Source of the DNA: a bacterium
GTDB taxonomy: Bacteria; Patescibacteriota; Minisyncoccia; Phycocordibacterales; UBA1006
Direction of reading: 5' to 3'
DNA: 64,000 nt
Assembly: GCA_043771175.1 (NCBI GenBank)
Contig: JAYVHO010000011.1
Coordinates: forward strand, 12,352-76,351
The position numbers and the translations under genes are program-made. Below the pieces are notes generated by a model. It had not been told where the DNA came from and made no database searches. It saw only the letters and a program-made list of their open reading frames with translations. Position 1 is the first letter of the stretch. Each line of letters starts with the position of its first letter. Below are positions 1,291 through 21,185 of this stretch, piece after piece.

Positions 1291-1318
1291 CCGTCATCCC
1301 GCCATTAGCGGGATCCAG
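1291..1318 (-). repeat. Intergenic hairpin repeat, consensus copy
   Basis: CCGTCATCCCGC-CATTAG-CGGGATCCAG, reverse complement of CTGGATCCCG..CGGGATGACGG; 88 nt upstream of tuf ATG. Confidence 0.85.
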
Positions 1319-1491: not shown

Positions 1492-1523
1492 GAAAAAGGA
1501 GCCATTCGCTGCGCGAATGACTC
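1492..1523 (-). terminator. Intrinsic terminator after 1526..2014
   Basis: GAGTCATTCGC-GCA-GCGAATGGCTC hairpin then CTTTTTCC on minus strand. Confidence 0.6.
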
Positions 1524-1525
1524 TC

Positions 1526-2014
1526 TTATTCCGGTATTTCTTTATATGGATCTATATATATGGCTGAATCAGGTATGACTACCTCTTTCTCCTCGGTTGA
1601 CTGCCCTTCTTTTGGTTTTATAGGAACAATAAGAATGTGAGTTTTTTCATTCTCAATTTCTTCTTGTTCAAGTTTTTTTAAATGAATATCTAGATTCTGT
1701 TCAAGAATTTCATATCCCTTTACAATTCTTTGAAGTAATCTTTTGTCTAAATCATTGCAAAAAACCCTAATACTTGTTTCTGATAATTTTGTACGTTCTT
1801 TGATTTGATTATAAAAATTTGGAACATCAGAAACGTCAAGTAATAAATACCCAACTTCACGCACAATTTCAAGTGCATCTTCTTCAGTAAAACCATGTTC
1901 TTGGCAAATAAGCAATATGGTTTCAATCCAATCTGTTTCTTCAATGACAGCAGTATCAAGTAAATTTTTTGCTAAAAGTTTTTCATTGATTTTAGAAATT
2001 TCATCAGCAATCAT
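1526..2014 (-). CDS. Hypothetical acidic protein (162 aa)
   Basis: Intact ORF with own -10 box; no recognisable domain. Confidence 0.55.
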   Translation of the reverse strand: MIADEISKINEKLLAKNLLDTAVIEETDWIETILLICQEHGFTEEDALEIVREVGYLLLDVSDVPNFYNQIKERTKLSETSIRVFCNDLDKRLLQRIVKGYEILEQNLDIHLKKLEQEEIENEKTHILIVPIKPKEGQSTEEKEVVIPDSAIYIDPYKEIPE

Positions 2015-2023
2015 AGTACATCA

Positions 2024-2032
2024 AGTATATCA
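2024..2032 (-). promoter_or_regulatory. Extended -10 box TGATATACT
   Basis: 9 nt before ATG 2014; its TGA is the stop codon of 2030..5608. Confidence 0.5.
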
Positions 2033-5000
2033 CTTCTTATCATCTTTCTTTTCATCTTTTTTATCCGGTGCTTCTGCTTTGATTTTAGTTTTATTAAAAC
2101 TTGATGCAACCCTATTTCCATCTTTATCAATTTCCATACCTTGTATTCTATCGGTGAATGCGATGTGCTTATCGCGATATGTAACATCTCTATTTAATTT
2201 ACTCTCCATAGAAACTGCTGCTTTTTGAACACCTTTTTGGACTATTGACCTTGCTCCATCTACAAATGCGCTTCCTGTTGGCACTGCATTTGCCAAGTTA
2301 TTTGACATATCTTTCAACTTCTTTTCTGCAAATGCTTTAGCATTATCAATTTCAAAACTGGCATCATTAAGTGCTTCTGCTGCCATTCTAAAGGTACCCA
2401 GTGTTGCCACTTCAGAAACTCTTCGTGAAATATTATTAATTTTTATCCTCTGATCTTGGGTATGTTTTTTAATATCTTTAAAATCACTCTTTGATTCCTC
2501 TCGTAATTGTTCTTCTTGCTTAGAAACGTTCATATTTTGTTTTTTATACTCAGTATTTTTTGATTCATATTCTTTAAGCTGAACTGCCATTTCATCTTTA
2601 TCTTTTCCAAATTGACGCTCAAGGAATTTATCATATTCTTCCTCTTTATCCTTTTTTTCGTTCATAATTATATTAAGTTTTTCATCAGCATTTTTAGTTT
2701 CTCTCTCTACTTTTTCTTTCAAGTTTTTAAGTCTTTCTTTTTCATCAACAGCGCGTTTCAGTGGAGCTGCATTTGCAGCAGCTGTAGCTTTTAGGGTTGT
2801 GATATCAGCATCAAATGTTGCAATTTTTGCATCATTGTCATTCATCTCAAGCCTATTTGCATCTATTTTAAGTTGTATTGCATCTTTTTCTGGTTGTGTT
2901 GGCGCAACCATTTTCATTTGCTGTAACTGAATATCTTTTTGTTCCAATGTATTCTTGCGGTTTAATAAATTATTTTTATCACCAAGATCTTTAATGCTTT
3001 TTTCAACAGTAATTCTTTGTGCATCCAGCAAATCAAATCTCGTACTTGCCGTATTAAAATCTGTTACTGCATTTGTAATCAAAGCACTTTTTGCAATTGC
3101 ATCATTTTGAGAATTAACAATTCTTTGCACTTGCTGTATTTTTTTTGTAATCGAACCACTATTTTGCTTAATTTCTTCTTCTCTTGTTCTTTTTTCAACT
3201 CCTTCAAACTTTTTTAACTTTTCAATTCTCTCATCCAGATACAGTGTTGGATCAGCTAAAATAGTATTAGCACCATGCGCTGTTTCAAGTGCAACCAATT
3301 TTGCTGCATCATCGCGCTTTGCTTTTTTTTCTTTTTTAATATCATCAGTATCTGTTACCAAATCTGCTACATTATATGTTTTATTTTCAGCAAAATCTTG
3401 AGTGAGTGATGCTTTTGCTTTTCCTATCATTTCTGCAAAGTCAATTTTTGATTGTCTATGCTCTCTCAGTTTTAATGCCTTTGCATTGCGTTCATCAGTT
3501 GTCACAGCAGGCATGTTATTAATTTCTGCTAATGCGAATTCAAACATTTTTCCTTGCGCAGTTTCAATATCAAGAATTCTCTTTATAACACTACTAAGCG
3601 GGTTTTTAATAGGATTTGCACGATAACCATCAACCGCATCTTTTATCCCATTGGTTGCAAAATCAAGTGTTGTATTATCTGAGTATCCTCCATCGATATT
3701 ACTGATTGAGTTTCTCATTTTTTGATTATTTTTATCAAATTCATTAAAGTTTTTTTCATTACCATTAAATGCAGTGTCAACGATATCTTTCTTTTCATCT
3801 TCCATATTCTTTTTTGCTTCATCTCGTTTTACACGTTTTTCTTTCATGGCAATATCAAACTCTTCTTGTTTATCTTTTTTAATTTCATCGGCAAGTTTTT
3901 GATAATATTCATCAACCTTATTACCATGTGCTATTAGCCCTCCTTCACGCCCTTCTTTTATGAACGAAGAAAGATTGTATCCATACCCAAGCGGAATTCT
4001 TCCAACATCCAAATAATCTTTTCCAAAGATTTTTGTACTTTCAAAATCAACACCAGTATCAAGTTTCATACCAACCTTTTCTCCATATTTTTTAAATCCA
4101 CCCAATTTTTTACCCAAATCACGTGCATCCCATGATCCTTCTTTCCCATATTTTTGCATGCTCTTCATAGTATTTCCGCGTAAAAGTTGAAGGCGATTTG
4201 AAATTGCATTTCCTTTACCCGTTGCCATATTCATACGAGCTTGTCGTGCAACAGCTGCACCTTGTCCAAGTGTTTTACTCCCTGCAAACGCTGCGCCAAG
4301 TGTTGACCGTGCTGCCAGTCCAGCCCCACCCATCACCAGTCCTCCCACTGCCCCCACCACGCTTTTAGCGCCAGATGCCAAAAATTCGCCAAATGATGTA
4401 GAAAACTTATCGGTAACTTTTTTTGTCATAATAACAATTCCAAAAACAATTATGAGTGGAATCATCCAAAAAATTAACTCTTTGAAAAGTACATCCGCTG
4501 AAGCCCCTGGAGCAATAGTTGCGCTTGAAGAGGTAAACACAATTAAGTTAATAGAAACCACAGTTAGATACATCATAAATAAAAACACCGCTGGCTGAAA
4601 TGCCATTTTTGCAAGATTTGAAGTATATGATTCAAATCCAATTTCTTTGAGTGCTGGTAGATCAAACATTTTTTTAAGCCACGGAATATTTACTGATGAT
4701 AAAAAAGCAAGCGGCGATGCAATCATTAAAAACCAAAGACCAAACGTTCGCGCAAAAAAATAAAATGCAATATTTAAAAACATGTATATCATAAAAATAT
4801 ACATAATACTTCCAATAATAAGATAACTATAAATTACTACCCAACTACTATTAAAAGCACTCAAAGTATTACTACTACCTCCAATGGCAGTAACCAACCT
4901 TAAGGCATTAGATTTATTGATAACAGCAGCAGTAATAGATCTGACTTTCAGTGGAAACCCTGCCCCATCAAATTTTGCAACGTTACCATCTACTGAAGGA

Positions 5001-5608
5001 ATATCGCTTTCTTGCAAATCCATCGCCCTATAAAAAACGCGCGCTGTAATGTTTCCTCCATCTATTACTACTTTCACAAAAAATAAACTAAAATTAATTA
5101 ACAGTGCAGCAATCGCGATACTAATTAACTGCTTTTTCCATGTATCTCCTCCTTTATTTACTATCATGTTCCCCGCAATAGTTAAAAGTATCATGATAAA
5201 AAAGATATTAATAAAGTCTCGTATCATCGCCCACCCCTGAGTAATCCACCCTTGCTGGTTATTATACGTTAAAGATTCCAATGTATATGCAATAATAATG
5301 TCCAATATCCAACCAGCAAATTTTACTAATGCTGCTGATGTTTGAAATATAATCCAAAAAATTCCAAATACGGTACACTGTACAATAGAAGTAAACACAC
5401 TAAATCCTTCACATTCAGTTGGCACCTGAGCATATGCAATGTTAACGTTGGTATTAATATGGAAACTCTTTGAAACCTTATTCTGAACTTCAATTTCTTT
5501 AATTTGAAGTGTCACCGGCGCCACCATAAACAGTGCCACACTTGCCATAAAAAATCCTGCCAACATTTTTGCAGAAATAATTTTTTTAAGCTTTGCAAAC
5601 ACGTTCAT
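2030..5608 (-). CDS. Large polytopic membrane protein with ~700-aa Lys/Glu-rich coiled-coil tail (possibly TrbL/VirB6-like)
   Basis: 1192-aa ORF; N-terminal signal-like segment, many hydrophobic helices in first ~440 aa, Gly/Ala-rich segment, then K/E/D/N-rich heptad-like sequence; TGA stop. Confidence 0.8.
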   Translation of the reverse strand: MNVFAKLKKIISAKMLAGFFMASVALFMVAPVTLQIKEIEVQNKVSKSFHINTNVNIAYAQVPTECEGFSVFTSIVQCTVFGIFWIIFQTSAALVKFAGWILDIIIAYTLESLTYNNQQGWITQGWAMIRDFINIFFIMILLTIAGNMIVNKGGDTWKKQLISIAIAALLINFSLFFVKVVIDGGNITARVFYRAMDLQESDIPSVDGNVAKFDGAGFPLKVRSITAAVINKSNALRLVTAIGGSSNTLSAFNSSWVVIYSYLIIGSIMYIFMIYMFLNIAFYFFARTFGLWFLMIASPLAFLSSVNIPWLKKMFDLPALKEIGFESYTSNLAKMAFQPAVFLFMMYLTVVSINLIVFTSSSATIAPGASADVLFKELIFWMIPLIIVFGIVIMTKKVTDKFSTSFGEFLASGAKSVVGAVGGLVMGGAGLAARSTLGAAFAGSKTLGQGAAVARQARMNMATGKGNAISNRLQLLRGNTMKSMQKYGKEGSWDARDLGKKLGGFKKYGEKVGMKLDTGVDFESTKIFGKDYLDVGRIPLGYGYNLSSFIKEGREGGLIAHGNKVDEYYQKLADEIKKDKQEEFDIAMKEKRVKRDEAKKNMEDEKKDIVDTAFNGNEKNFNEFDKNNQKMRNSISNIDGGYSDNTTLDFATNGIKDAVDGYRANPIKNPLSSVIKRILDIETAQGKMFEFALAEINNMPAVTTDERNAKALKLREHRQSKIDFAEMIGKAKASLTQDFAENKTYNVADLVTDTDDIKKEKKAKRDDAAKLVALETAHGANTILADPTLYLDERIEKLKKFEGVEKRTREEEIKQNSGSITKKIQQVQRIVNSQNDAIAKSALITNAVTDFNTASTRFDLLDAQRITVEKSIKDLGDKNNLLNRKNTLEQKDIQLQQMKMVAPTQPEKDAIQLKIDANRLEMNDNDAKIATFDADITTLKATAAANAAPLKRAVDEKERLKNLKEKVERETKNADEKLNIIMNEKKDKEEEYDKFLERQFGKDKDEMAVQLKEYESKNTEYKKQNMNVSKQEEQLREESKSDFKDIKKHTQDQRIKINNISRRVSEVATLGTFRMAAEALNDASFEIDNAKAFAEKKLKDMSNNLANAVPTGSAFVDGARSIVQKGVQKAAVSMESKLNRDVTYRDKHIAFTDRIQGMEIDKDGNRVASSFNKTKIKAEAPDKKDEKKDDKK

Positions 5609-5618
5609 ATATAGGTAC

Positions 5619-5627
5619 AGTATATCA
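5619..5627 (-). promoter_or_regulatory. Extended -10 box TGATATACT
   Basis: 10 nt before ATG 5608. Confidence 0.5.
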
Positions 5628-5817
5628 CTGTAAAATTATTAATTTGATTATATAATTTTGTTCTTTTACAAGATTTGCTTGCATACATACTTTTCCCCAT
5701 TTCTGTGGAAAACTTGACAAATCATCTTTTTTGGGCAATAATTAAACAACGACTATTTAAGTTAATTCTTAATTTGTTCTAAAAATTTTCAGGAAACCTA
5801 TAAAAAAATCATTAAAA

Positions 5818-6375
5818 ATGAAAAAATTACCTATAACTGTCCCCTCTGGTACAGATCTCGCTTTCGCCTTCTTTAAGAAGGCAACTACCGCATTGTTCAT
5901 GGTTATTTTTTTTGTTATTTTTGCTACTTCATGTAGTAAAAACGCCGACAATATAACCCCTATCACCGATTTAAATAACACAGTAAAAACTCAACCGTTA
6001 AAATTAGTTGAATCAAATTTTACATTTGATATACAAGCATATTTTATCGGAAAAAGAATTGATGATCAAACTATTGAGTACTTATATGATTTCAAAAGCA
6101 TGGGTGCGGCAAGTTGTACTGAAGAATTTACACTAATTACACGTTCATTGAGAATAAAAGTAAAACCAATTATTAAAACAACGACAAATATCGAAGGAAT
6201 ACCAATTCATATAGAATATTTTCCTGAAGAATTTGATGTATTTATTGATAATGCATTTTTTAATGAAGTATTTTATAAAAAAGCAAAATTTCTAATCATA
6301 ACTACAAAAAAAAGTAATATTGGTTCTAAATGCTTGCAAAGTTATTTTGTAAAAGACGGCATACCAATTTATTAA
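5818..6375 (+). CDS. Putative lipoprotein (185 aa)
   Basis: Hydrophobic N-terminus ending FATSC (lipobox-like Cys); opposite strand inside the envelope cluster. Confidence 0.55.
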   Translation: MKKLPITVPSGTDLAFAFFKKATTALFMVIFFVIFATSCSKNADNITPITDLNNTVKTQPLKLVESNFTFDIQAYFIGKRIDDQTIEYLYDFKSMGAASCTEEFTLITRSLRIKVKPIIKTTTNIEGIPIHIEYFPEEFDVFIDNAFFNEVFYKKAKFLIITTKKSNIGSKCLQSYFVKDGIPIY

Positions 6376-6431
6376 AAGTACTACGTCCTTTAAAAAACAG
6401 CAATTATTTGCTGTTTTTTAATGCACAATTT

Positions 6432-9400
6432 TTAATAAAATGAAACTTTAGATGGATCATAATCATTAATACTCTTACTAAAGTAGAAGGCGGAACAACT
6501 AAATCCTTTATATAATTCAGACACCTCTTTGGTAAATATACCTTTAATGGTGTTCCAATTCAGTACAGCGTTGAGAATAGGTATACCTGCAGCCCATGCA
6601 GATTTTGCACTCTTTTCAAGATCATCTTTACTAAGACCTTTGGAATCAAAATCTTTATCCCATTTTCTACCTAGAACCAAGCCTGTTTCTGCAGTTTGAT
6701 TATATGCAAGTGCACAATAGTATGCAATTTCACTATCCTTCATTTCAAGATCAAAATTTTGCGCGGATAAAGTATTTAATCTTTTTATTGCATCTTGCGT
6801 GTCTTTTTCATTTATTTTTGTTTGCACTGCATACTGTTCTGGAATATTGTATGTGATAGTTGTTGACTGTGAAGTACTACAACTATTAATTTGATCTTGT
6901 GTGGGAGTGCTACCTGGTGATAATTGATATTTACTTTGTAAGCATGATGTTAATGCTCCAAGATCTGAATAATTTATACCAGTTCCTGAGGTTGAAACGG
7001 AACCACTATTACCAAGTCCTGTCTTAACTAAAGTTATTGTTTGATTATTAAGTGTAAATTGTATGTCATTTCCCATTAATTCATCTCTTCCCTCGCCAGT
7101 TGAACCAAAATTTTGTTTCAAAAATTCTAAATCTTTGTTTTCATCAATATTATCCGTATTTATTGAATTATAGAAATTCATGACTATCGGTGAACCAGTA
7201 ATACTAAGAGGTAAATATTTTGATCTTTTACTTCCACAATCTTGAACAGATTTTTTTAATTGCTTATATAATGCAACTGTTTTTTTAGATTCGTAAGATG
7301 GGGAACCTTCATATCCAGTATCTGAAAAATATGGATAATATGAATAGATTTCGTTAATTAATGTAATTCTATCTTGTGCAGTTAATGCTTCACCTAACTC
7401 GTTCACCTCTGAGTCCCAAACTTCTTTGATTTTTTTAAGCCTTTCAAGGATAGTAAGCCTATTACTTAATGCCGAATTTAACGATTCCTTATTACTAAAC
7501 AAATTTTCGGACTGATTAACTAAACTTCTATATTTAAAATCATCTGCTGTTTTATAATATATATCTGTTGGTCGTATTTTTTGATTCATATAGTCAAGCA
7601 CCTTACCTGTACCTGAATCGAGTAAGCCTACAAAATTTTCTGCTTGATTAACTACTGTATCATCTTTATTGCTAAAAATTCTTGTCTGTACACGAGATCT
7701 TGCCCGTGTATATTTTGTAGTAAACCGTGCTTCCCATCCTTTATCCGGCCCTGGAACACATACATCTAACTTTCTAACAACATATATCGATTGTTCATTT
7801 AAGTTAATGATTGATTGAAATATGTTAATATCATTTTCAAGTTTTGTAATATTATTAAAACCACATTCCCCCATTGCACTCGACAGTTTTATTAGTTCTT
7901 CTGCATGTTCAACCATATCACCTTCAATTTGAGCTTTTTTCTTATCATCATTTGTTAATATTTTTTTTGGGTCTTCTATTCCTAACTTTTTCAAACATTC
8001 TATTGATTCTGGGGGTAAATCAGTAATCAACACTTGGCTTGCTTGTTCTCCTGTTATATATTGATCTTGATTAGTATCAGCATTTAATGCCTCAGGTGCT
8101 CTTTCTTGCAAATCAATCAAATCTTTATTCGAAATTACGTCAACTTTTTGTTTTATTGCGTCAATTGCTCCAGTTATTTTTTTCTTTGCCCATGCTTCGC
8201 CCAAAGGCACACCTTGCTTAATTACTTCATCTTTAAGTCTTGACACTGTATATGATAGCAAATCTTGCCATGTATCAACTTGTTGTGACTGTGTAATTGG
8301 GGTGTTAGTAACTTGTCTAAGCATTCCTTCGACAATAGTACCTGGTAGTGTGGTGGCATACACTGAGCACGTTTCTGCCAAATATTCTGGAGTGTATAAA
8401 CCTGGGTTAATACCATTTTGTTTAAATTCTACGGTTGGCAATTGAATAGGAGTAAATGTTTTTGGAGCAATTTGTCCTGGTGCCTGATATAAGTTTTCAT
8501 TAGAATAACCCCCATCACCATTTTGTGCATTAACCACAGTACTAAATGAAAGTTTTTCTTTCAAGAATTCTCCAAGATTATAGCCAAGTGTGCCCTTTAG
8601 TGTTGACTGCTGTGAAGCGTCGTCAGTTTTTGGAAGTGGGTCGGTTGCTTTTGGTGCACGTGGTTGCACCTTTGCTTTAAGTTTTAAACAAGTTTTTTGA
8701 GATTGAAAACCTTGATTGTTTGCAAGTTCTTGGGATAATTCTACCCTTTTTGCTAATAACTTTGTATAAATATCTTGTTGTGTATTAACATATTTACCAA
8801 GTAAATTATTATTCTCTTTTGTTGAAAGACTATATTTTGTCCAAAAATTTTTAAGGTTTTCTTTTCTAATTTTTATTTCATTTTCAGAGTTTCCATATCC
8901 TGCTCCATTTACAAAATATTTCCATTTGGTTTTATCTTTTAATATACTGCCTTCCAATGTATTAATTAGTTTTTGGTTTGGGTTTGTTGTAACGCCGGTA
9001 TAGTTTGAAACAAGACCCAAGACTACTTGCTTGGCGTAATATGAAGTTGGCTCTGCTATTTCTTTATTGATAAATGCATCCAACTCATCTCTAAACTGAG
9101 TTCGTTTAAGTTGCTCATAGGTGAGTTCTGTGTTTTGAACAAAAGATGGTTTCCCCTTAAAACCTGAGTACGCCCATGAAACTGTCTCTTGTATTGTTTT
9201 ATCTAGAAATGACTGTGCTAACTTAATAGCAATTGTTTTAAGAACTCCATTATTAAAGAATTCTTTTACTTCTATAACTTTTGATGTGGAACTGTTTGCA
9301 ACTTCAACCGGCTGCAATACTGCATTAAAAAAATCTTGGAATTGAGCTTCTGCCATTAAGTCTTTTTGAGTTCCCATAATACAAAAACTACAGACAATTA

Positions 9401-9473
9401 CAGATATAAACAGTGCTATAAATTTTTTCTTATATTCAGATGACATATATCTATTGCTTCTTAGCATATTCAA
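6432..9473 (-). CDS. Large secreted or surface protein (1013 aa), no recognised domain
   Basis: N-terminal KKKFIALFISVIVCSFCIMG signal/anchor; overlaps upstream gene by 23 nt. Confidence 0.8.
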   Translation of the reverse strand: MNMLRSNRYMSSEYKKKFIALFISVIVCSFCIMGTQKDLMAEAQFQDFFNAVLQPVEVANSSTSKVIEVKEFFNNGVLKTIAIKLAQSFLDKTIQETVSWAYSGFKGKPSFVQNTELTYEQLKRTQFRDELDAFINKEIAEPTSYYAKQVVLGLVSNYTGVTTNPNQKLINTLEGSILKDKTKWKYFVNGAGYGNSENEIKIRKENLKNFWTKYSLSTKENNNLLGKYVNTQQDIYTKLLAKRVELSQELANNQGFQSQKTCLKLKAKVQPRAPKATDPLPKTDDASQQSTLKGTLGYNLGEFLKEKLSFSTVVNAQNGDGGYSNENLYQAPGQIAPKTFTPIQLPTVEFKQNGINPGLYTPEYLAETCSVYATTLPGTIVEGMLRQVTNTPITQSQQVDTWQDLLSYTVSRLKDEVIKQGVPLGEAWAKKKITGAIDAIKQKVDVISNKDLIDLQERAPEALNADTNQDQYITGEQASQVLITDLPPESIECLKKLGIEDPKKILTNDDKKKAQIEGDMVEHAEELIKLSSAMGECGFNNITKLENDINIFQSIINLNEQSIYVVRKLDVCVPGPDKGWEARFTTKYTRARSRVQTRIFSNKDDTVVNQAENFVGLLDSGTGKVLDYMNQKIRPTDIYYKTADDFKYRSLVNQSENLFSNKESLNSALSNRLTILERLKKIKEVWDSEVNELGEALTAQDRITLINEIYSYYPYFSDTGYEGSPSYESKKTVALYKQLKKSVQDCGSKRSKYLPLSITGSPIVMNFYNSINTDNIDENKDLEFLKQNFGSTGEGRDELMGNDIQFTLNNQTITLVKTGLGNSGSVSTSGTGINYSDLGALTSCLQSKYQLSPGSTPTQDQINSCSTSQSTTITYNIPEQYAVQTKINEKDTQDAIKRLNTLSAQNFDLEMKDSEIAYYCALAYNQTAETGLVLGRKWDKDFDSKGLSKDDLEKSAKSAWAAGIPILNAVLNWNTIKGIFTKEVSELYKGFSCSAFYFSKSINDYDPSKVSFY

Positions 9474-10368
9474 TTATAACAGAAGTCAAAGCATGTAATG
9501 AGACGGAATACCTTACAAAACTTTTAGATAATGTAGTAATTGCTGCCATTCTTATTACCGTATCCGCTGATTCATCCAAAACAGCTCCGAGTTTTGAGCT
9601 CATTTCAAGGGAAGCATTAATTACTTCAGCATGATACCCAACCCAAGATTTTGGTGGCTTGGTATTAATAAGAACACTTTCAAAAACATCAATTTTACTT
9701 TTTATCTGCCTCATTAAAGCAATTTGATTTGTTTCGTCTGGGTCACCGTTTATTTGATCAATATCTGCTTCTGTAACTATATGAGTTTTAAAGTAGGGAA
9801 TTATTGTAAAAAGGTATTGATTATAATTTGGTTTATAGTCAGAGTTATATTTAATTTCATCTTCAGAATACTGCTTACCTACTTGAATATTTTTAATGCT
9901 ATCAATAACCCCATCACCTACATTTTGAAGATCTTCTTCAGAAGTTATATTCTTAGATAATTTATAAATATCTTGTGCAACTAATGCTGTTTTTGATTGC
10001 TCTAAATTAGAATATACAGACCCCTTTGATAAACTATCTGATTCAACATTCTCCACAAAAGCCTTATCACTCGTCCCCTCGCCATACGTCTGCGCAGAAG
10101 CGGGGTTTAATCCATAAATGTTTTCTTGCCAGTCAGGAACACCGTCTTTGTCGGTATCAAAGTTTTCAAAATCAATAGAATCAAGGGCTTTTTTAATTTC
10201 TGCATCCAGTTTGACATCTTCTTCTGAAGACACTACGTCAGGTGTTTGCACCGTTAATGCCAATTTTTCATTACGTTTTTGTACTACTAAAAAAATAGAA
10301 AGTGCAATAATAGCTGCGGTAATTCCCAATGTGATATATAAAAATTTACGCGCAGACTGTTTATCCAT
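9451..10368 (-). CDS. Membrane-anchored protein with thrombospondin-type-3-like Ca-binding motif
   Basis: N-terminal TM helix; DTDKDGVPDWQENIYGLNP matches DxDxDGxxDxxE repeat. Confidence 0.7.
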   Translation of the reverse strand: MDKQSARKFLYITLGITAAIIALSIFLVVQKRNEKLALTVQTPDVVSSEEDVKLDAEIKKALDSIDFENFDTDKDGVPDWQENIYGLNPASAQTYGEGTSDKAFVENVESDSLSKGSVYSNLEQSKTALVAQDIYKLSKNITSEEDLQNVGDGVIDSIKNIQVGKQYSEDEIKYNSDYKPNYNQYLFTIIPYFKTHIVTEADIDQINGDPDETNQIALMRQIKSKIDVFESVLINTKPPKSWVGYHAEVINASLEMSSKLGAVLDESADTVIRMAAITTLSKSFVRYSVSLHALTSVIIEYAKKQ

Positions 10369-10374
10369 GGTAAT

Positions 10375-10383
10375 AGTATATCA
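10375..10383 (-). promoter_or_regulatory. Extended -10 box TGATATACT, leaderless spacing
   Basis: 6 nt before ATG 10368. Confidence 0.55.
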
Positions 10384-10491
10384 CTGCAAAAATTGAAAAA
10401 TTAGACAAATAAAAAGGCTGCAGCAGGCATTTACACCTGAAACAACCTTTTCGTTGAGATATAAAAAGTATATATTTTTTTGTTGTCAAAT

Positions 10492-11256
10492 CTATATTCT
10501 TGTTACCACCTCATTCCCCTTTTCCGTAATAATCACCGTATGTTCAAAGTGAGCAGCTGGTTTTTTATCTTGTGTTATTACCGTATATTCATCATTTTGA
10601 AAAATAATATCCTCGGTTCCCAGAGTTAATTGTGGTTCAATAGCAATTACCATTCCAGGAACCAACATGATACCTCTCCCCCTGCGGCCATAATTGGGAA
10701 TAAATGGATCCTCGTGAATATATCGCCCCACACCGTGGCCTACCAACTCGCGAACAATTCCGGTACGCTTATTTACAAATTTTTCAATAGCACAGCCAAT
10801 ATCGCCAACGGTATTTCCTGGTAACGCTTGCATGATTCCTACTTCTAGAGCTTCTGCGGTGATGTTCACCAAATCCCTAACGTCTTTAGTTGATTTTCCC
10901 ACAATGATAGTTCTGGCGTGGTCGGTATAGGTGCTTTTCCACAACACGCCACAATCTATAGAAACAACGTCTCCTTCTTTGATAATTCTTTCACCAGGAA
11001 TTCCATGAACAATTTGTTCATTAATAGAAACACAGAGAGTTTTTGGATATGGTTTTGAAACACCTTCTGGGGTATAACCTTTAAATGCAGGAACGGCGCC
11101 ATGCTTTAAAATTTCTGCCTCCGCCAAGACATCTAGTTCATTGGTAGTCATACCAACTTTGGTATTATCTATAACATATTGCACCACGTGTGCCAAAATC
11201 TTGCCTCCTTCTCGTATAGCATCTAATTCTTCTTTTGTTTTTATGATAATTTTCAT
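10492..11256 (-). CDS. map: Methionine aminopeptidase type I
   Basis: MetAP fold motifs (VVSIDCG, GHGVG, IAIEP, FEHTV); start at MKIIIKTKEELD. Confidence 0.93.
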   Translation of the reverse strand: MKIIIKTKEELDAIREGGKILAHVVQYVIDNTKVGMTTNELDVLAEAEILKHGAVPAFKGYTPEGVSKPYPKTLCVSINEQIVHGIPGERIIKEGDVVSIDCGVLWKSTYTDHARTIIVGKSTKDVRDLVNITAEALEVGIMQALPGNTVGDIGCAIEKFVNKRTGIVRELVGHGVGRYIHEDPFIPNYGRRGRGIMLVPGMVIAIEPQLTLGTEDIIFQNDEYTVITQDKKPAAHFEHTVIITEKGNEVVTRI

Positions 11257-11315: not shown

Positions 11316-12260
11316 TTAGGTTTTTATAGTGGTTATGGGACGAGATTGAAGTATATATAGAATCTCATCTTTTATAGCCCATTCAACATCACATGCATAA
11401 CCGCTCATAATCTCTATATCTTTAACCGCTTTGGCAATTGAAGTAATATTTTCTTTACTAAGTACTCTAGAATTTGCTATATTATACGGCAATTCAATCC
11501 ATTCACTTCCGCCTCCATCTTTCGGATAAACACTCTTGTTTTTATGGTTTATAACTTCTTCTATAATTTGAAAGTTATCCTTTAACAAACCATAACTATC
11601 TGGAGTTACCATTCCAGAGACAACAGATTCTCCAAGCCCATAATTTGCTTCAATAAGCATCATGTTTTCATCTTCACTTATTGGGTGAACAGAAAATGCG
11701 ACACCTGCCTTTTCTGCAAAAATCATATTTTGAATAATAACAGCAACAGCGATGTCACTACCAAAACCGCTCCTTAACCCATAATGAATAGCTCGAGGAC
11801 CATAGAGTGAAGCCCAACATAACTTTAATTTATTTAGAATGTCCCATCTTTCAACATTTAAAAAGCTTTCAAGTTGACCTGCCCACGCATGATCGAGGCC
11901 ATCCTCTACTGTGGCCGAAGACCTAACTGCAACATTACCCAACCCTAGGTATGAAAATTGAGACATTATTGATTCAGCTATCTCGTTTGGGATTTTTGAA
12001 TCCATAATTAGTTTTTTTATATCAAGGGAGGCAGATTCAAGTGTATGTGGAATATTTAAGTTGATAGTGTTTAAGATTGACTTTATTTTTTGTTTCAGAT
12101 CTAGTGATATCATAAAGTCCTTAAACGCTTCTGTAGTAACCACAATACCATCAGGAACATTGAAGTTATGTCGACATAAGCAGCTTAATGACGCAGCTTT
12201 TCCTCCTACTTTCTTAGAATCTTCTAAAGATAAGTGTCTTAATGTTTTGGCATAGTACAT
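11316..12260 (-). CDS. Stand-alone PpsA/PPDK N-terminal ATP-grasp (nucleotide-binding) domain protein
   Basis: VGGKAASL, VAVRSSATVEDG, WASLYGPRAIHY, DVEWA..LQSRPIT collinear with PEP synthase N-domain. Confidence 0.85.
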   Translation of the reverse strand: MYYAKTLRHLSLEDSKKVGGKAASLSCLCRHNFNVPDGIVVTTEAFKDFMISLDLKQKIKSILNTINLNIPHTLESASLDIKKLIMDSKIPNEIAESIMSQFSYLGLGNVAVRSSATVEDGLDHAWAGQLESFLNVERWDILNKLKLCWASLYGPRAIHYGLRSGFGSDIAVAVIIQNMIFAEKAGVAFSVHPISEDENMMLIEANYGLGESVVSGMVTPDSYGLLKDNFQIIEEVINHKNKSVYPKDGGGSEWIELPYNIANSRVLSKENITSIAKAVKDIEIMSGYACDVEWAIKDEILYILQSRPITTIKT

Positions 12261-12268
12261 ATTTTCTT

Positions 12269-12967
12269 TTATTTTGTTTGAATATCGGGTCTTGATTGAA
12301 GTACTGGCTTGTTGTCAACATACGTACGAGAAATCATTGGGTGAGCTTCATCGGTCGGTCCATTTTCTGAATCTGGATGATATGTAACAACCACCAGACG
12401 TGTTTTTGAATAAAATGCATGATCAATATTTTCCTCCATAATTAAAAACCCTCCGGTCCTAAGCTCGTATGATTCTCCTCCCACATCACAGGATCCTTCA
12501 CCCTCAATTACAATCGCGCAACGAAGAGAAGGGTGTGTGTGACTATGTTGATTTATTCCTGCAGGGAAATACATAACATTTAAACAAGGCAAACCCATCT
12601 TTGGAGGATGAATTGCGATAGAGTCTTTGGCACCATCAATATATTTCAATCTACCGTCGCTTTCGATAGGGCCATTTATTTGAAAAGGTATGTCTTCCTC
12701 AGAAAGAATTACCCAGGACTGTGCCAGCGTTGTTGTGTTTATAATATTTAAAGGAATTACTGCTGTGGAGTTTTTTGCAATTGCATACAGTCCAAATAAT
12801 GTTTCCACTGAACCAGACTCCAGGCTAATAATATAAGCTGATTTCCATCTTGTTTTTTTATATTCAGAAAAATCAAAATTTTCAACAATACCTAATATTA
12901 ATACTGGATGAACATTTTCGACGATTAATGCTTCATGTTTGCAGAGTGAATTAAAAAACTTATACAT
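12269..12967 (-). CDS. Cupin-fold protein
   Basis: NQHSHTHPSLRCAIVIEGEG and GGFLIMEENIDHAF match the two cupin motifs. Confidence 0.7.
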   Translation of the reverse strand: MYKFFNSLCKHEALIVENVHPVLILGIVENFDFSEYKKTRWKSAYIISLESGSVETLFGLYAIAKNSTAVIPLNIINTTTLAQSWVILSEEDIPFQINGPIESDGRLKYIDGAKDSIAIHPPKMGLPCLNVMYFPAGINQHSHTHPSLRCAIVIEGEGSCDVGGESYELRTGGFLIMEENIDHAFYSKTRLVVVTYHPDSENGPTDEAHPMISRTYVDNKPVLQSRPDIQTK

Positions 12968-12976
12968 ATCTTTACT

Positions 12977-13510
12977 TTAATTTAAAACGTATTGCCATTC
13001 TTGTTGCCACATCCATGGCTCAACAACTACTTCTTCAAGTGGCTTATTATTACAAATACATTCAAGTCCATATTGTGTTGCACGATGGCCCACAATTACG
13101 ATTGTGAGATTATCATATCGTTCTTTTAATCCAGCAAGAAAATCAGACATTCGATTCAAGCAATCGGTATAACTTTCACCGTGTGGGTATGGTGCGAGAA
13201 CTGACTCAAGACGTTTGTCTTCCATTTCTTTCTTGCTACATCCATTCATATCTCCATAATTACATTCTCGTAGTCGCCAATCCATAATAATAGGTACATG
13301 ATGTTCTTCGAAGGCTAAAAGACCGGTCATATACGATCGCTGATGGTCTGAACAAAATACTATATCAAATTTTCTTTCACTAAAATAGTGTTTAGTTTCT
13401 TGTGCTTGTGTAAGACCAAGATCTGATAGTGGCACATTATTCCAACCGGAAGCTATCTTGTTTTCGTTATCAAGGGTTGTTTTATGGGAAATAAAAGTAA
13501 TGTTTATCAT
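12977..13510 (-). CDS. Histidine phosphatase (PGAM) superfamily protein
   Basis: FISHKTT..SGW..PLS..G..QA, SDHQRS, ECNYGDMNG, GHRATQ; RHG motif reads SHK. Confidence 0.75.
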   Translation of the reverse strand: MINITFISHKTTLDNENKIASGWNNVPLSDLGLTQAQETKHYFSERKFDIVFCSDHQRSYMTGLLAFEEHHVPIIMDWRLRECNYGDMNGCSKKEMEDKRLESVLAPYPHGESYTDCLNRMSDFLAGLKERYDNLTIVIVGHRATQYGLECICNNKPLEEVVVEPWMWQQEWQYVLN

Positions 13511-13524
13511 AATAATAAAGGTAA

Positions 13525-13692
13525 TTAATTTATAATTATATGGCCGTTTGTAGCATCTAAGGTGATACGAACACCATCTGGAATGACTTTAGTTGCATGC
13601 AAAGTAGCAATCCCACATGGAATTCCAAACTCCCTACAAACAACTGAGGCATGACTTAGCATACCACCTTCTTCAGTAATTACACCCGCTGA
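13525..13692 (-). other. In-frame continuation after TGA encoding the phosphohistidine motif of the PEP-utiliser swivel domain
   Basis: Same frame as 13693..14940: SAGVITEEGGMLSHASVVCREFGIPCGIATLHATKVIPDGVRITLDATNGHIIIN, TAA at 13525. Confidence 0.8.
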
Positions 13693-14940
13693 TCACTGAA
13701 TTGCATCCATCAAATCAAAATCTGTACCTATTGCAATCATAATATCTCCATTCAAAACCCTTTTTGCGTCTTCTTTTGAAAGTACTATTCTTGCCAAACC
13801 AGAAACAACGCCCTTTGACGCACATGTTGTCTTGATGGTTGTGCGATGCTCATATTTTTGCATAGTTGGAAGCAATGTCTCCTGTATGCATAAATATTCT
13901 GATCTAATAAATACAATCCCTTGTTGTTTACGTTCATAAATTATTTGATGGGAAACAAAATTTTTATCAATCAATAATGTAAGTAGCTCTGAAAGTAAGT
14001 AAAAATTTAAATCTTCTCTTTTAATGTTTAATCTTTGTGAAATCGCATCAAATATTGTAAATTTTATTGCAACAATCTTTCCTAAACGTGCCTTATTGTA
14101 GTCACGAAATGTACCAACTTCTCTCATCAATATAATTAACTCTTTAAGTTTTTCGTCTAAAATTAAATCTATCGTATTGCTATCTTTTAATATATCTTGC
14201 TTTTCTAGACTTACATTACTCAATGACCTTTCCATTTTTTCTTTATAATAATCAAGACTATATGGGGATTCTCCATATGCACAATGCATCCCAGAATACT
14301 TTTTATAATGAGCATTCAAAAGAATACTATATTCATCAATGAGCATACCTTCTTTTATTTTTTTTATTATTACTTCAAAATCTTCTTCCTCCTTTTGAAA
14401 CTCGGTTTTTTCATCAGTTGTTATTAGTTGAGATAGTAAAGACTCGCCATACTTTTCATAATAACCTTCTTCCTTTAGTTTTTGATCAATTGCAGTATAC
14501 AGCGCTCGCTCTATTTGCACTAAATTAACTTGATAAAGTTCACCTAATACTTTATCTTGGATATCAATTAGGGTATTTACTAACTTTATGATTTCACATT
14601 CAAAAAAATTAATTTCATGAAAATCATCTTCAAGTTTGTTAATATGAGTTCTATCAACTTTCATCATTTCTCTTGTCTGTTCAATAATATATGGATCGCC
14701 CATTTTATATCTCTGTGCAACAAGTGTTTCTAAAAATTCCCACTCCGACTTTGGTGCGTACGATAAAACTATTCCATCTTTCCACTCCACCCTTGTATTT
14801 CTAAAGCGAATTGAATTTATTCTAGGTAAGTGTCGATTATAAAGATTGTGTATAAATTCTGCACCTAAAAGATGCTCGACTTTTCGCATATTTATTAACT
14901 TCCATTCATCTTGTTCAAGATTTTGCTTATCACGAATCAT
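13693..14940 (-). CDS. Unknown N-domain plus first half of PEP-utilising enzyme mobile (swivel) domain, interrupted by in-frame TGA
   Basis: C-terminus ASKGVVSGLARIV..GDIMIAIGTDFDLMDAIQ then TGA; domain continues in frame. Confidence 0.8.
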   Translation of the reverse strand: MIRDKQNLEQDEWKLINMRKVEHLLGAEFIHNLYNRHLPRINSIRFRNTRVEWKDGIVLSYAPKSEWEFLETLVAQRYKMGDPYIIEQTREMMKVDRTHINKLEDDFHEINFFECEIIKLVNTLIDIQDKVLGELYQVNLVQIERALYTAIDQKLKEEGYYEKYGESLLSQLITTDEKTEFQKEEEDFEVIIKKIKEGMLIDEYSILLNAHYKKYSGMHCAYGESPYSLDYYKEKMERSLSNVSLEKQDILKDSNTIDLILDEKLKELIILMREVGTFRDYNKARLGKIVAIKFTIFDAISQRLNIKREDLNFYLLSELLTLLIDKNFVSHQIIYERKQQGIVFIRSEYLCIQETLLPTMQKYEHRTTIKTTCASKGVVSGLARIVLSKEDAKRVLNGDIMIAIGTDFDLMDAIQ

Positions 14941-15046
14941 AACAGTTTCTAATTACTTACAAATATATACTACATCTATTGAATATTCTTACATATTGAC
15001 ATTTATCAATAAATATATATTATTATATTAAACAAATATTAAAATT

Positions 15047-15484
15047 ATGGAAACACTGAAAATCAGAAAACAAAAAAAGCTAAATAAGGACGCAATTCTA
15101 ACGAAGGTTGCAAAGTTTGTTAAGATAAATAGGCTCGTATTTCACAAAAAATTTGATTTCCCGAAAGTCGCCGATTGCGAAGCTTATATTGAGATTCTCG
15201 AATATTCAACTCGAACCTCAACAAATCAGGTACTTGCAGACATACATCGAAAAAAAATGATTCGACCTCAAATTTCGGATGTTTTTTTCTTTTTGCTTGA
15301 CTGTTGTGAAATATTAAACCCAGGAAGACGAATTGTCTTTTTACATGAATATTTCCCTTGGTCCGGCTTCATGTTTTATGCTGTTGTTTCAACAACAGAA
15401 AAAGAGACACGACTGGACTTGGTTTCTCCAGGAGAATATTGGACCGAAGATTTTACGTTCGCCGCTATTAAACAAAGTGTTTAA
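15047..15484 (+). CDS. Hypothetical protein (145 aa)
   Basis: Intact ORF 18 nt upstream of the nucleotidyltransferase gene; no domain recognised. Confidence 0.5.
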   Translation: METLKIRKQKKLNKDAILTKVAKFVKINRLVFHKKFDFPKVADCEAYIEILEYSTRTSTNQVLADIHRKKMIRPQISDVFFFLLDCCEILNPGRRIVFLHEYFPWSGFMFYAVVSTTEKETRLDLVSPGEYWTEDFTFAAIKQSV

Positions 15485-15502
15485 CTAAAAAACCTTAAAC
15501 AA

Positions 15503-16216
15503 ATGAAAAAAATACATATCGTTGCAGGAGGGAAAGGCGAAAGAATTGCAGATTATTGTGATGTAGTTGGAGTAAAGGTTAAACATTTACTCCCAGTAGC
15601 AAATACTAATCTTCTCCTTAATAATTGTCAGCAAGCACTCTCTTCTTTTAAACATATCGTTGTTTCTGCTAGTTCTCAAAACGTAGGTTATTTTGAAAAT
15701 TTTTTTTATACAGAAAAAAGATTTCATAAGCAAGTAAGTCTTAGTATAGATTATCAATTAACTGGTCCACTTGGTCCAATTGCAAGAGAAATGTTTCGAT
15801 CAAAAAGTAAAACATTATTTCTAGCAACTGGTGACGCATATGCAGATTTTGAATGGGAAAGTTTAATTAAGTTTCATCAGAAAGTAAAAACACCAGTCAC
15901 CTTACTAGCCGCTGCTTCTGTGTCTGTTCCAAACGGTGCCGTGTTTACAGTTAGAAATGACGGTCTAATAACTGACTGGGAAAGAAAACTGATAACCAAC
16001 GAAACAGATTTAATAAATATTGGTTATTATTGCATTAATAACGATAAAGAAGTTAAGCAAATATTTAAGAAAATGACCCAACACAAAGAGGACGACTTTT
16101 TTAAAGAACTTATTTCAAAAGAATTAGTTTCGGCATATGTAATTCCTAATGCATTTAACGTAAATACACTCGAAGCATACCGTGCGTTACAAGAGTATAT
16201 CCTTATGAAAAAATAA
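15503..16216 (+). CDS. Nucleotidyltransferase (NTP_transferase family)
   Basis: N-terminal IVAGGKGERI resembles the sugar-phosphate nucleotidyltransferase G-x-G-x-R loop. Confidence 0.7.
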   Translation: MKKIHIVAGGKGERIADYCDVVGVKVKHLLPVANTNLLLNNCQQALSSFKHIVVSASSQNVGYFENFFYTEKRFHKQVSLSIDYQLTGPLGPIAREMFRSKSKTLFLATGDAYADFEWESLIKFHQKVKTPVTLLAAASVSVPNGAVFTVRNDGLITDWERKLITNETDLINIGYYCINNDKEVKQIFKKMTQHKEDDFFKELISKELVSAYVIPNAFNVNTLEAYRALQEYILMKK

Positions 16217-19802: not shown

Positions 19803-20339
19803 CTAAACGTTCTTCTTACCTTGTTTACGTCTGATAATTTCTCCGTCGTAGTGAAATCCTTTACCTTTATATGGTTCTGGTTTCTTCAAAGAACGAATCA
19901 TTGCAGCAAATTGCCCAACGTGTTCTTTATTGATTCCGGTAACCGTTAAGGTATTTTTTTCATTAGAAGCAGTGATCCCTGCAGGAATTGGTACAGAAAC
20001 TGGGTGTGAAAACCCAAGTGCCATATCAACATTTTTTCCTACAACATTTACCTTATATCCAATTCCATCAAGGATAAGCTTTTTGGTATAACCCTTTGCA
20101 ACTCCTTCGATCATATTTCGAACCAAAGCGGCGTAAGTTCCCAACAAAGCGCGTCCAAATACGGTTTCTTTTACGAGGGTAAATACTACTCCTTCTTCAG
20201 TAATAGTAACAGCAACTTCTTTGTGAACAAATGCTTGCGCGAGTTCACCCAAAGCTCCTTTTACGGTGATGGTATTTCCATCAATTTTTGCAGTTACTCC
20301 AGCTGGAATAACCATAGGTTTTTTAGCAAGACGTGACAT
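19803..20339 (-). CDS. rplF: 50S ribosomal protein L6
   Basis: MSRLAKKPMVIPAGV start; KGKGFHYDGE motif. Confidence 0.94.
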   Translation of the reverse strand: MSRLAKKPMVIPAGVTAKIDGNTITVKGALGELAQAFVHKEVAVTITEEGVVFTLVKETVFGRALLGTYAALVRNMIEGVAKGYTKKLILDGIGYKVNVVGKNVDMALGFSHPVSVPIPAGITASNEKNTLTVTGINKEHVGQFAAMIRSLKKPEPYKGKGFHYDGEIIRRKQGKKNV

Positions 20340-20343
20340 ATAA

Positions 20344-20736
20344 TTACCAAATTTGGAATAATACTTCTCCTCCAACATGTTCTGCCCGTGCTTGTTCGCC
20401 GGTCATAATACCTTTTGGAGTAGAGAGGATCACACGACCATATCCTTCTTTTATTTTAACGATTTCTTTCACACCCGTATATAAACGGCGAGAAAGTTTT
20501 GACATACGAAGAACATCGTGAATCTTGTGATTCCCTCGTTCATCATATGATAGTGTTACCTCAAGAATATCTCCGCCTTTTTTACGACTTTTCTTGTCGT
20601 ATGCGCTTATGTATTGCGCATCAAGGAGGGCCTTCATGATATTTTTCATGTATAAGGTGTACGGGATTTGCACAGTTTCTTTCTTTGCAATTCCTCCATT
20701 CTTGAGTGTGATGATTGCGTTGGCAATTTTATCCAT
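20344..20736 (-). CDS. rpsH: 30S ribosomal protein S8
   Basis: DKIANAIITLKNG..GGEVL pattern. Confidence 0.95.
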   Translation of the reverse strand: MDKIANAIITLKNGGIAKKETVQIPYTLYMKNIMKALLDAQYISAYDKKSRKKGGDILEVTLSYDERGNHKIHDVLRMSKLSRRLYTGVKEIVKIKEGYGRVILSTPKGIMTGEQARAEHVGGEVLFQIW

Positions 20737-20759
20737 ACTCTAATTATTGGTCAAGGTGA

Positions 20760-20945
20760 TTACCAAGATGACTTTCTAACCCCAGGCAGCATTCCTTCGT
20801 TTGCGAGTTCGCGGAAACAAATGCGGCAAAGGTCAAAATCACGTAGGTATCCTCTTCCACGTCCACAACGGAAACATCGATTTTTCTCACGAGAAGAAAA
20901 CTTTTGTTTCTTGAGGGAACGTGCAACTACTGACGTTTTTGACAT
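20760..20945 (-). CDS. rpsZ: 30S ribosomal protein S14, zinc-type (type Z)
   Basis: 61 aa, CFRCGR..CRICFR Cys pairs. Confidence 0.93.
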
Positions 20946-20963
20946 ATTTATATGTGGAAAATA

Positions 20964-21185
20964 CTACCATTCCGTCATCCCGTTGTATAACGGGATCCAA
21001 GTTTTATAGCATTTTCTGTAAGCGACCGAGTCGTAGCGCAGCTGCGACTCATTTAAATTTATAACGAAGACGATATCTTCATGATGAATAATATATTGGC
21101 ATATGGCACAAAGGTTACCCTTTGAAAACTTGGTACATTCCAAGCATCTTTGTGAGATTCCGCATGTAAAGATATGAAGCTCCAT
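20964..21185 (-). CDS. Possible small Cys-rich (CxxC..CxxC) protein or leader ORF
   Basis: MELHIFTCGISQRCLECTKFSKGNLCAICQ..; consensus promoter upstream; last 12 codons lie in the hairpin repeat. Confidence 0.3.
   Translation of the reverse strand: MELHIFTCGISQRCLECTKFSKGNLCAICQYIIHHEDIVFVINLNESQLRYDSVAYRKCYKTWIPLYNGMTEW
20972..21001 (-). repeat. Intergenic hairpin repeat, consensus copy
   Basis: CCGTCATCCCGTT-GTAT-AACGGGATCCAAG; 26 nt upstream of rpsZ ATG. Confidence 0.85.

Follow-up and report, generated by a model that had tools for sequence, protein, structure and literature searches.

The closest described relative of the genes analysed here is the chromosomal type IV secretion system (T4SS) of Patescibacteria. 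According to the available part of the survey that describes it, this system comprises VirB4, TrsD, PrgI and VirB6, is encoded near dnaA and mostly comes without a relaxase; few VirB8 homologues and no adhesins are reported there (PMC12102498). The available text of the same source and of a second one states that the sole Patescibacterium that has been genetically tested cannot grow epibiotically without the T4SS, and calls its role completely unknown (PMC12102498; PMC11665869). Effector delivery to the host and uptake of DNA or nucleotides have been proposed for its substrates (PMC11665869). Here we analyse a 64-kb stretch, termed the window, of the 99.8-kb contig JAYVHO010000011.1, of which ~91 kb were surveyed. 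An earlier note on this DNA had picked out a cluster of four co-oriented genes (termed g1 to g4), a lipoprotein gene on the opposite strand and three identical promoter-like boxes, all of which we found as described (Table 1), and had suggested that the cluster may encode a lineage-specific cell-surface or host-attachment apparatus. We arrive, with considerable confidence, at a different reading: the cluster represents that half of the known Patescibacteria T4SS which accounts for its membrane channel and surface parts, split ~73 kb from the ATPase half, and is a rearranged member of that system rather than a new apparatus.

None of the five cluster proteins directly matches a family in Pfam, NCBIfam or PHROGs. 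The gene families were compared by synteny, in the neighbourhoods of distant homologues and in a scan using one genome per species, which left 80 loci out of 281 relatives. These loci define a canonical order in Paceibacteria: uvrD - rsmA - a - b/c - VirB6-like - d - (e) - PrgI(VirB3) - TraC-like/TrsD - VirB4 - f - pilin/SLT-like - h - R3H/yidC/rnpA/dnaA, in which a encodes ~290 amino acids (aa) with a faint TSP3_bac match, b/c 500-1200 aa and d 130-200 aa. Of the 61 species-level loci with enough sequence, 58 have VirB4 no more than 8 kb downstream of the g3 homologue, and the a and b/c genes lie upstream of that homologue in 55 of 58. Profiles built from the canonical operon match g1 (gene a, 8.8e-28), g2 (b/c, 3.3e-29) and g4 (d, 3.7e-9), and tblastn directly ties g1 and g2 to the corresponding canonical genes. 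Because these three profiles match and the synteny of g3 is fixed, g1-g4 are assigned, by sequence and gene order, to the T4SS operon as orthologues of its first four genes, that is of its 5' part. A comparison of the four families across genomes of the candidate phyla radiation, proposed in the earlier note, thus finds them co-operonic with VirB4 in 58 of 61 Paceibacteria species loci. The idea of a lineage-specific apparatus does not survive this result, since the operon is conserved across Paceibacteria and only its split is specific to the lineage.

Two other genomes are of note here. In CAZSFP010000002.1 (12400-20744), from an unrelated genome, rsmA-a-b/c-VirB6-d are found without PrgI-TrsD-VirB4 within 8 kb, which may represent an independent operon split. 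In one Paceibacteria genome the UvrD helicase encoded beside the canonical T4SS operon (positions 1-1049 of locus L005) bears an intein (Pfam Intein_splicing).

The key protein of the cluster is g3. The earlier note had described it as having many transmembrane (TM) helices in its N-terminal part, a Gly/Ala-rich segment and a long charged tail, and had likened it to TrbL/VirB6-type channel subunits. The architecture is borne out: a hydrophobicity count places nine hydrophobic segments within residues 16-395, where at least five TM segments are expected of VirB6/TrbL, residues 440-560 contain 17% Gly, and the tail (residues 560-1192) contains 14% K, 9% E, 10% D and 8% N. The N-domain (approximately residues 70-455) is homologous to ~50 Paceibacterota/Parcubacteria proteins, and the family-invariant residues W126, N134, I171, N172, F173, S174 and R287, which lie in conserved membrane motifs, are all retained in g3. 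The tail, as a sequence, is common only to one relative (P0002, 51% identical). That a long C-terminal tail is special to g3 was considered and rejected: the family spans 660-1213 aa, and a member of 1182 aa is encoded in a canonical operon.

Besides synteny, three lines of evidence point to a VirB6-type protein. Pfam TrbL (PF04610) is matched by six of 48 g3 relatives, of which the best, P0049, is the sole one above the gathering cut-off (32.1 versus 25.9 bits). An AlphaFold2 model of the g3 N-domain (mean predicted local distance difference test score, pLDDT, 74; predicted TM-score 0.68) is a helical membrane bundle with pLDDT >85 across most helices, and in a fold search its five best PDB matches are all chains of R388 TrwI/VirB6 (probability 0.75-0.98). 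Finally, profile-profile alignments by hhalign link the g3 family to R388 TrwI (P = 0.0019) and, across the same helices, to pCF10 PrgH (P = 0.0014), compared to P = 0.24-0.75 for the controls VirB5, VirB8 and PrgL. PDB sequence searches with g3, g2 and three of the family profiles returned coiled-coil or chance matches only. The TrbL matches, the fold search and the hhalign results are each weak alone, and are consistent with one another and with synteny. Since the transitive homology to TrbL, the fold search, hhalign and the very strong synteny (58 of 61 loci) agree, g3 is identified, as a prediction, as a polytopic T4SS membrane subunit of the VirB6/TrbL family, in line with what the earlier note had guessed. 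A further VirB6-like match was seen on a 480-kb contig labelled Urechidicola sp., a Bacteroidota metagenome-assembled genome (MAG); it lies at 9908-11044, has no other T4SS family nearby and adjoins an open reading frame (ORF) of 2394 aa. It likely reflects mis-binning, horizontal transfer or a distant paralogue.

The earlier note had also remarked that no VirB4/VirD4-type ATPase is nearby and that pilB, the only secretion ATPase in the window, is 48 kb from the cluster. Inside the window both statements are accurate: a T2SSE ORF was located at that distance, and neither tblastn nor profile searches found VirB4, PrgI or TrsD within the window. However, all three are present on the same contig, ~73 kb off, and the apparent lack of a nearby ATPase is an artefact of the window edge. 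The profile of canonical gene h matched a gene just past that edge, next to dnaN, which led to the second locus (termed locus B, the cluster itself being locus A). Locus B starts ~7 kb beyond the window. VirB4 is found ~15 kb beyond it, at ~78.7-80.5 kb in window-equivalent coordinates and ~73 kb from g3. On one strand of locus B are, in this order, genes for VirB4 (607 aa), PrgI, TraC-like/TrsD and a 646-aa protein; the divergent arm consists of f, two genes for proteins of 769 aa (with a weak SLT_2 match) and 761 aa, and h, beyond which lie dnaN and dnaA. The assignments are strong for both Pfam (VirB4 P-loop_TraG 89.4 bits, PrgI 36.9 bits) and the canonical profiles (VirB4 1027 bits, TrsD 4.6e-69, PrgI 6.9e-36, f 1.9e-47, h 1.3e-37).

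Locus B thus adjoins dnaN/dnaA and has kept the origin-proximal location, whereas locus A is found between map and tuf, ~60 kb from dnaA. The slot between uvrD and yidC (window 56273-63303 and beyond) is occupied here by T2SSE(pilB-like)-ruvB-yebC-ruvC-PBP, and rsmA is absent from it. On the ~91 kb surveyed the canonical families are single-copy, except for the pilin/SLT-like gene. Its two copies, of 769 and 761 aa (positions 5355-9974 of L090, the stretch beyond the window), are 42% and 36% identical to the single 762-aa gene of a sister genome, and both diverge quickly. This sister genome (GCA_036405175.1) has the same split architecture: its locus A reads map-g1-g2-lipoprotein-g3-g4-tuf, and its locus B, which reads TrsD-PrgI-VirB4 // f-SLT-like-h, lies beside yidC/dnaA, ~67 kb from locus A. 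Since the canonical families are spread over two loci in both sister genomes, the lineage is best described, from its gene complement, as carrying one T4SS gene set that is split in two.

The VirB6-type gene, a class typical of conjugative elements, and a G+C content of 0.30-0.35, slightly below the window average of ~0.36, could suggest that the cluster is part of a mobile conjugative element inserted among the ribosomal-protein operons. We give this almost no credence. In the window no relaxase, integrase, coupling protein or repeat boundaries were seen and the remainder is housekeeping; likewise no relaxase-like annotation is present on the ~91 kb of contig surveyed, although no relaxase profiles were run. 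Moreover, the map-tuf synteny is identical in a genome whose T4SS proteins are 30-51% identical, and the homologues are chromosomal and origin-proximal across Paceibacteria.

A comparison of the two sister genomes shows that the two halves evolve at different rates. Housekeeping proteins are 74-95% identical (EF-Tu 91%, S10 95%, DnaA 89%) and the ATPase half is in the same range (VirB4 90%, PrgI 74%, TrsD 76%). The other proteins of locus B are less conserved (f 60%, h 59%, SLT-like 36-42%), and those of locus A are at 51% (g3), 47% (g4), 39% (g1), 30% (g2) and 21% (lipoprotein). A conserved motor with fast-evolving exposed parts is the pattern that would be expected should the products of locus A form that end of the machine which is exposed at the surface or contacts the host. 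All ORFs of both loci are intact in both genomes, and because of this and because g3 has kept the family-invariant residues, both halves appear to be maintained. The disrupted operon and the high divergence of g2 and g1 (30% and 39% identity, where EF-Tu has 91%) would also fit a decaying, non-functional remnant left after the operon broke up. This is highly improbable, given that neither genome shows any damage in the long ORFs (1192, 1004, 305 and 162 aa), the invariant residues are retained, the promoter boxes and their spacing are conserved at the orthologous genes, and the ATPase half is itself intact, with VirB4 90% identical.

Physical separation from VirB4 by ~73 kb, evolution much faster than that of the ATPase half, an added putative lipoprotein gene that is missing from the canonical operons, and three identical promoters that are not found at locus B genes could, on the other hand, mean that locus A now encodes a surface or attachment apparatus of its own, which no longer works with the VirB4 machine. 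In essence this is the reading of the earlier note, with a polytopic anchor that bears a long coiled-coil tail, and surface proteins beside it. We regard this as very unlikely. On the sequence surveyed, the canonical families are single-copy over the two loci in both sister genomes, apart from the pilin/SLT-like duplication in the window's genome, and no second VirB6 was seen beside VirB4 that could serve the ATPase half. Elsewhere, 58 of 61 species have these four families in one operon with VirB4. Furthermore, Rickettsia is described, in the available part of the survey, as having dispersed T4SS genes that still cooperate (PMC12102498).

We then consider the partners of g3. The protein g1 has a single N-terminal TM segment (residues 11-29). 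Its motif DTDKDGVPDWQE at residues 71-82 fits the pattern D-x-D-x-D-G-x-x-D-x-x-E of thrombospondin type 3 repeats (TSP3, Pfam PF18884), and calcium binding is predicted. In an alignment of 30 family members D71, D79, W80 and E82 are invariant, which makes the TSP3 motif the invariant core of the family. Pfam TSP3_bac is matched by 14 of the 30 members (best E-value 6.6e-9), g1 itself being under the reporting threshold. The putative calcium-binding motif noticed in the earlier note is thus the hallmark of the family. An hhalign match between g1 and PrgL was dismissed, as it covers the TM helix alone.

For g2, the longest ORF of 1013 aa would overlap g1 by 23 nucleotides (nt), as the earlier note had it. 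The public gene call starts g2 at the ATG at 9446 instead, 4 nt past the g1 stop. As both this call and the family consensus N-terminus fit that ATG, the overlap is probably an artefact of choosing the longest ORF. The protein has an N-terminal signal or anchor, is mostly alpha-helical and contains conserved cysteines and motifs. HMMER finds 171 relatives, among which residues 5-280 and 530-685 stand out as conserved blocks. An AlphaFold2 model built from 61 sequences (pLDDT 63.6) is good across residues 530-770, and Foldseek matched it to generic helical bundles and designed proteins only, from which no function can be read. The description as a giant protein without a recognisable domain stands: Pfam, NCBIfam and PHROGs are all blank and the fold search is uninformative. 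The profile and structure searches proposed in the earlier note were productive for g3, whose relatives reach TrbL and whose model resembles TrwI, but not for g2. The g4 protein is acidic, as had been noticed (net charge -17), has no predicted signal or TM segment, and a Pfam scan of its family found no domain.

The opposite-strand gene between g2 and g3 encodes 185 aa, in which hydrophobic residues 18-36 are followed by a lipobox-like ...FATSC (ATS-C at the putative cleavage site). The TSC is kept in the sister orthologue, which occupies the same position and is 21% identical. We therefore retain it, as did the earlier note, as a putative lipoprotein gene. It has no match in the canonical operon loci.

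Each of g1, g3 and g4 is preceded by the same 10-mer, GTGATATACT. There are four exact copies of it in the window, compared to 0.09 expected, and none of 100 shuffles reached four. The fourth copy, at 58935-58944 on the plus strand, lies ~460 nt inside the T2SSE/pilB-like ORF. The 30 nt downstream of it contain no start codon, and it may be a chance occurrence or an internal promoter. The 10-mer holds TG-A-TATACT, a TG-extended -10 element, and no Shine-Dalgarno (SD)-like motif is found between box and ATG. The box before g4 includes the TGA stop of g3 (2030-2033; aagaaG-TGA-TATACT), whereas stop and box do not overlap in the sister genome, where the box is intergenic. There, the identical 10-mer precedes the g1 orthologue at the same 6-nt distance, ATGATATACT is found 7 nt before the ATG of the g3 orthologue and CTGATATACT 11 nt before that of the g4 orthologue. 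Thus, the 9-mer TGATATACT stands before g1, g3 and g4 in both genomes (6/6), 6-11 nt from the ATG. No box precedes g2, which starts 4 nt after g1, and since it has no box of its own, g1 and g2 are probably co-transcribed. The positions of the boxes, the absence of one before g2 and the strong terminator after g4 are consistent with the three transcription units of the earlier note.

The earlier note had further proposed a search for the box elsewhere as a means to define a regulon. No regulon emerged: besides the three boxes of the cluster the window has only the copy inside pilB, and locus B has none. A T4SS regulon that spans both loci was rejected on the same ground, the box being absent from locus B. 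Instead, seven locus B genes use other TG-extended -10 variants, such as TGCTACAAT, TGTTATAAT and TGCTAAACT, 6-9 nt from their ATGs. Of the 44 called genes of the contig, 27 have a TAnnnT whose end is 4-12 nt from the start codon, most often 6 nt, and 13 of these 27 are TG-extended. An SD-like motif is found at 1/44. Because -10-like elements end so close to the starts and SD sites are almost absent, leaderless or near-leaderless transcripts are likely on this contig. Our literature search turned up no description of widespread leaderless starts in this Paceibacteria lineage. The same arrangement was seen at a domain-less giant ORF left of the window (>1349 aa, positions 20260-23579 of the flank L003; 1776 aa in the sister genome, positions 20279-23642 of L001). 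This ORF comes after the S10 operon and genes for a response regulator and a DUF192 protein, and has a TATACT that ends 6 nt before its ATG.

It is conceivable, if rather improbable, that GTGATATACT is a dedicated site for a special sigma factor or regulator with a small regulon. The four exact copies, the use of other variants by the seven locus B genes and the occurrence of TGATATACT before all three units in both genomes speak for it, and the last of these leaves some room for coordinated control. However, the box conforms to the textbook extended -10 element, TG-n-TATAnT, and its distance of 6-10 nt to the ATG matches that of the -10-like elements before most other genes of the contig. With up to one mismatch the 9-mer TGATATACT is not enriched in the window (22 versus 19.8 expected), the fourth exact copy inside pilB has no start codon after it, and no gene for a regulator accompanies the cluster. 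The most fitting reading of the box is that of a strong, near-consensus form of the general extended -10 promoter of the contig, not of a special regulon signal.

Taken together, the T4SS operon has been broken in this lineage, and its first four genes, together with a new putative lipoprotein gene, are now found between map and tuf. We propose that the two loci still build one machine jointly. In it, the VirB6-type g3 would form the membrane channel or the base of a stalk, and g1 and g2, which diverge fastest between the sister genomes, would make up an extracellular, wall-crossing or host-contacting part. The g4 protein would be cytoplasmic, with the VirB6 tail or the ATPase as its possible target, while VirB4, TrsD and PrgI would supply the energy. 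The boxes would start transcription at or within a few nt of the ATG, resulting in the leaderless units g1-g2, g3 and g4, with termination after g4.

Several observations weigh against this proposal. The g3 protein itself has no Pfam match (E-values up to 1) and no NCBIfam match, its TrwI fold matches are weak (E-values 0.011-0.058, TM-score at most 0.44), and the hhalign probabilities of its family to TrwI and PrgH are just 14-18%. On which side of the membrane its tail lies, cytoplasmic or extracellular, is ambiguous by the positive-inside rule and the hydrophobicity count. When compared by hhalign to PrgC/D/E/F/G/K/L of pCF10 and VirB5/VirB8 of R388, the g1, g2 and g4 families show no similarity, and we infer their roles from position and topology only. 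Similarly, the co-function of the two loci is deduced from gene complement and conservation, and the term leaderless is a reading of the sequence. Finally, the survey covers ~91 kb of one MAG contig, and the rest of the genome may encode a further VirB6, a relaxase or a coupling protein.

A more far-reaching version of the proposal, which we put forward tentatively and consider unlikely as it stands, is that g1, g2 and g4 are functional replacements for VirB8, VirB5 and adhesin components. Together with the charged ~630-aa VirB6 tail they would form a wall-spanning host-contact conduit of the epibiont, which in this lineage is uncoupled from the ATPase module and stands under its own identical leaderless promoters among the ribosomal-protein operons. 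If this were true, the contact module could evolve and be expressed independently of the motor.

Our analysis has several implications. VirB6 and its partners can sit ~70 genes from virB4, so that surveys limited to 20 coding sequences on each side of virB4 miss them. Three conserved unnamed families (TSP3-motif anchors, giant helical secreted proteins and small acidic proteins) accompany VirB6 in dozens of Paceibacteria species; since VirB8 homologues are few in the published survey and adhesins are not reported there, they are candidates for these roles. The envelope half diverges faster than the ATPase half (30-51% versus 90% identity), as expected of host-contact parts. In addition, extended -10 elements and apparently leaderless starts with almost no SD sites matter for gene calling in these genomes.

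Table 1. Positions in the 64-kb window of the genes, boxes and other features discussed in the text.
Feature	Position	Strand	Description
g1	9451-10368	-	305 aa, predicted bitopic membrane protein; assigned orthologue of canonical gene a
g1 codons for DTDKDGVPDWQE (residues 71-82)	10123..10158	-	TSP3-like, predicted calcium-binding motif; sequence and invariant family columns
g2, longest ORF	6432-9473	-	1013 aa, TTG start
g2, public gene call	6432..9446	-	1004 aa, ATG at 9446; assigned orthologue of canonical b/c
g3	2030-5608	-	1192 aa, predicted extended VirB6/TrbL-type polytopic channel subunit
g3 N-domain, residues 1-470	4199-5608	-	
g3 Lys/Glu/Asp/Asn-rich tail, residues 561-1192	2033-3928	-	
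g4	1526-2014	-	162 aa, acidic; assigned orthologue of canonical small gene d
Lipoprotein-like ORF	5818-6375	+	185 aa, opposite strand to g1-g4
GTGATATACT box before g1	10375..10384	-	ends 6 nt before ATG
GTGATATACT box before g3	5619..5628	-	ends 10 nt before ATG
GTGATATACT box before g4	2024..2033	-	ends 9 nt before ATG
Intrinsic-terminator-like hairpin	1499..1523	-	11 pairs, 6 G-C, T-rich tail; directly after g4 stop, before tuf
pilB/T2SSE ORF	58472-60616		714 aa; 48 kb from cluster

Two further features of the contig were noticed. One is a G+C-rich palindromic intergenic repeat of ~50 nt (GTCAYCCCGCCACTAGCGGGRTCCA and its complement) in this A+T-rich genome. Full copies are found at ~2225-2345 and ~4175-4325 of L090, where they flank VirB4 (in the divergent region between VirB4 and f and in the gap between VirB4 and PrgI), and half copies at window positions 1299-1311, upstream of tuf, and 37032-37044, after the trigger-factor gene. 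The repeat resembles repetitive extragenic palindromes or miniature inverted-repeat transposable elements, or is possibly a regulatory hairpin. The other is an insertion of ~5 kb (window 11316-16216) in the tail of the spc ribosomal operon. It separates adk from map, which are direct neighbours in the sister genome, and contains genes for a PPDK_N-like protein, a cupin, a His_Phos phosphatase and a domain-less protein of 415 aa, plus two small ORFs on the plus strand.

How does the split system compare to known T4SSs? R388 TrwI and Agrobacterium VirB6 (PF04610) are polytopic inner-membrane subunits like g3, which shows a weak but specific profile match over the same helices. However, g3 is 3.5 times longer than TrwI (1192 versus 342 aa), adding an N-terminal signal or anchor, the Gly/Ala-rich segment and the charged tail of ~630 aa. 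It has no direct Pfam match, and the partners VirB5, VirB7, VirB9 and VirB10 of the TrwI system are not present here. By architecture alone g3 can also be likened to TraG of the F plasmid, which has a VirB6-like polytopic N-domain and a large hydrophilic C-terminal domain that acts in mating-pair stabilisation and presumably contacts the partner cell. Regarding gene order, the PrgH-PrgI-PrgJ genes of pCF10, from the MPF-FATA conjugation system of the monoderm Enterococcus, have the VirB6-like, PrgI, VirB4 order of the canonical Paceibacteria operon. pCF10 differs in that it has a relaxase, a coupling protein and LPXTG adhesins. The VirB6 gene is here unlinked from PrgI/VirB4. A T4SS with genes scattered over the chromosome has a precedent: the available descriptions of the rvh system of Rickettsiales present it as functional, with dispersed genes and with VirB6 proteins that have very large C-terminal extensions (PMC2653234, PMC7648143). 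The rvh system is described there as a diderm P-type system with several VirB6 paralogues, whereas here one VirB6 was seen, in a monoderm-type system with other partners; the likeness is one of gene dispersal and tail architecture.

The closest counterpart remains the MPF-FATA-related chromosomal T4SS of Patescibacteria (Quinonero-Coronel et al. 2025, PMC12102498). As far as its available description goes, VirB6, PrgI/VirB3, TrsD, VirB4 and the pilin/SLT-like protein are found here too, and part of the system adjoins dnaA/dnaN. Unlike in that system, the genes are split here into two loci ~73 kb apart, and the VirB6 half is at map/tuf, not at rsmA and the origin. Moreover, the VirB4-PrgI-TrsD order is rearranged and an extra putative lipoprotein gene is present on the opposite strand. 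The available text of that source does not list the TSP3-motif, giant helical or small acidic families among the components of the T4SS, and a search of it for TSP3 was blank. Thus, what is new here is the split architecture found in two genomes, the three unnamed families next to VirB6, the contrast in evolutionary rates and the pattern of apparently leaderless promoters, which refine a recently described system and overturn nothing.

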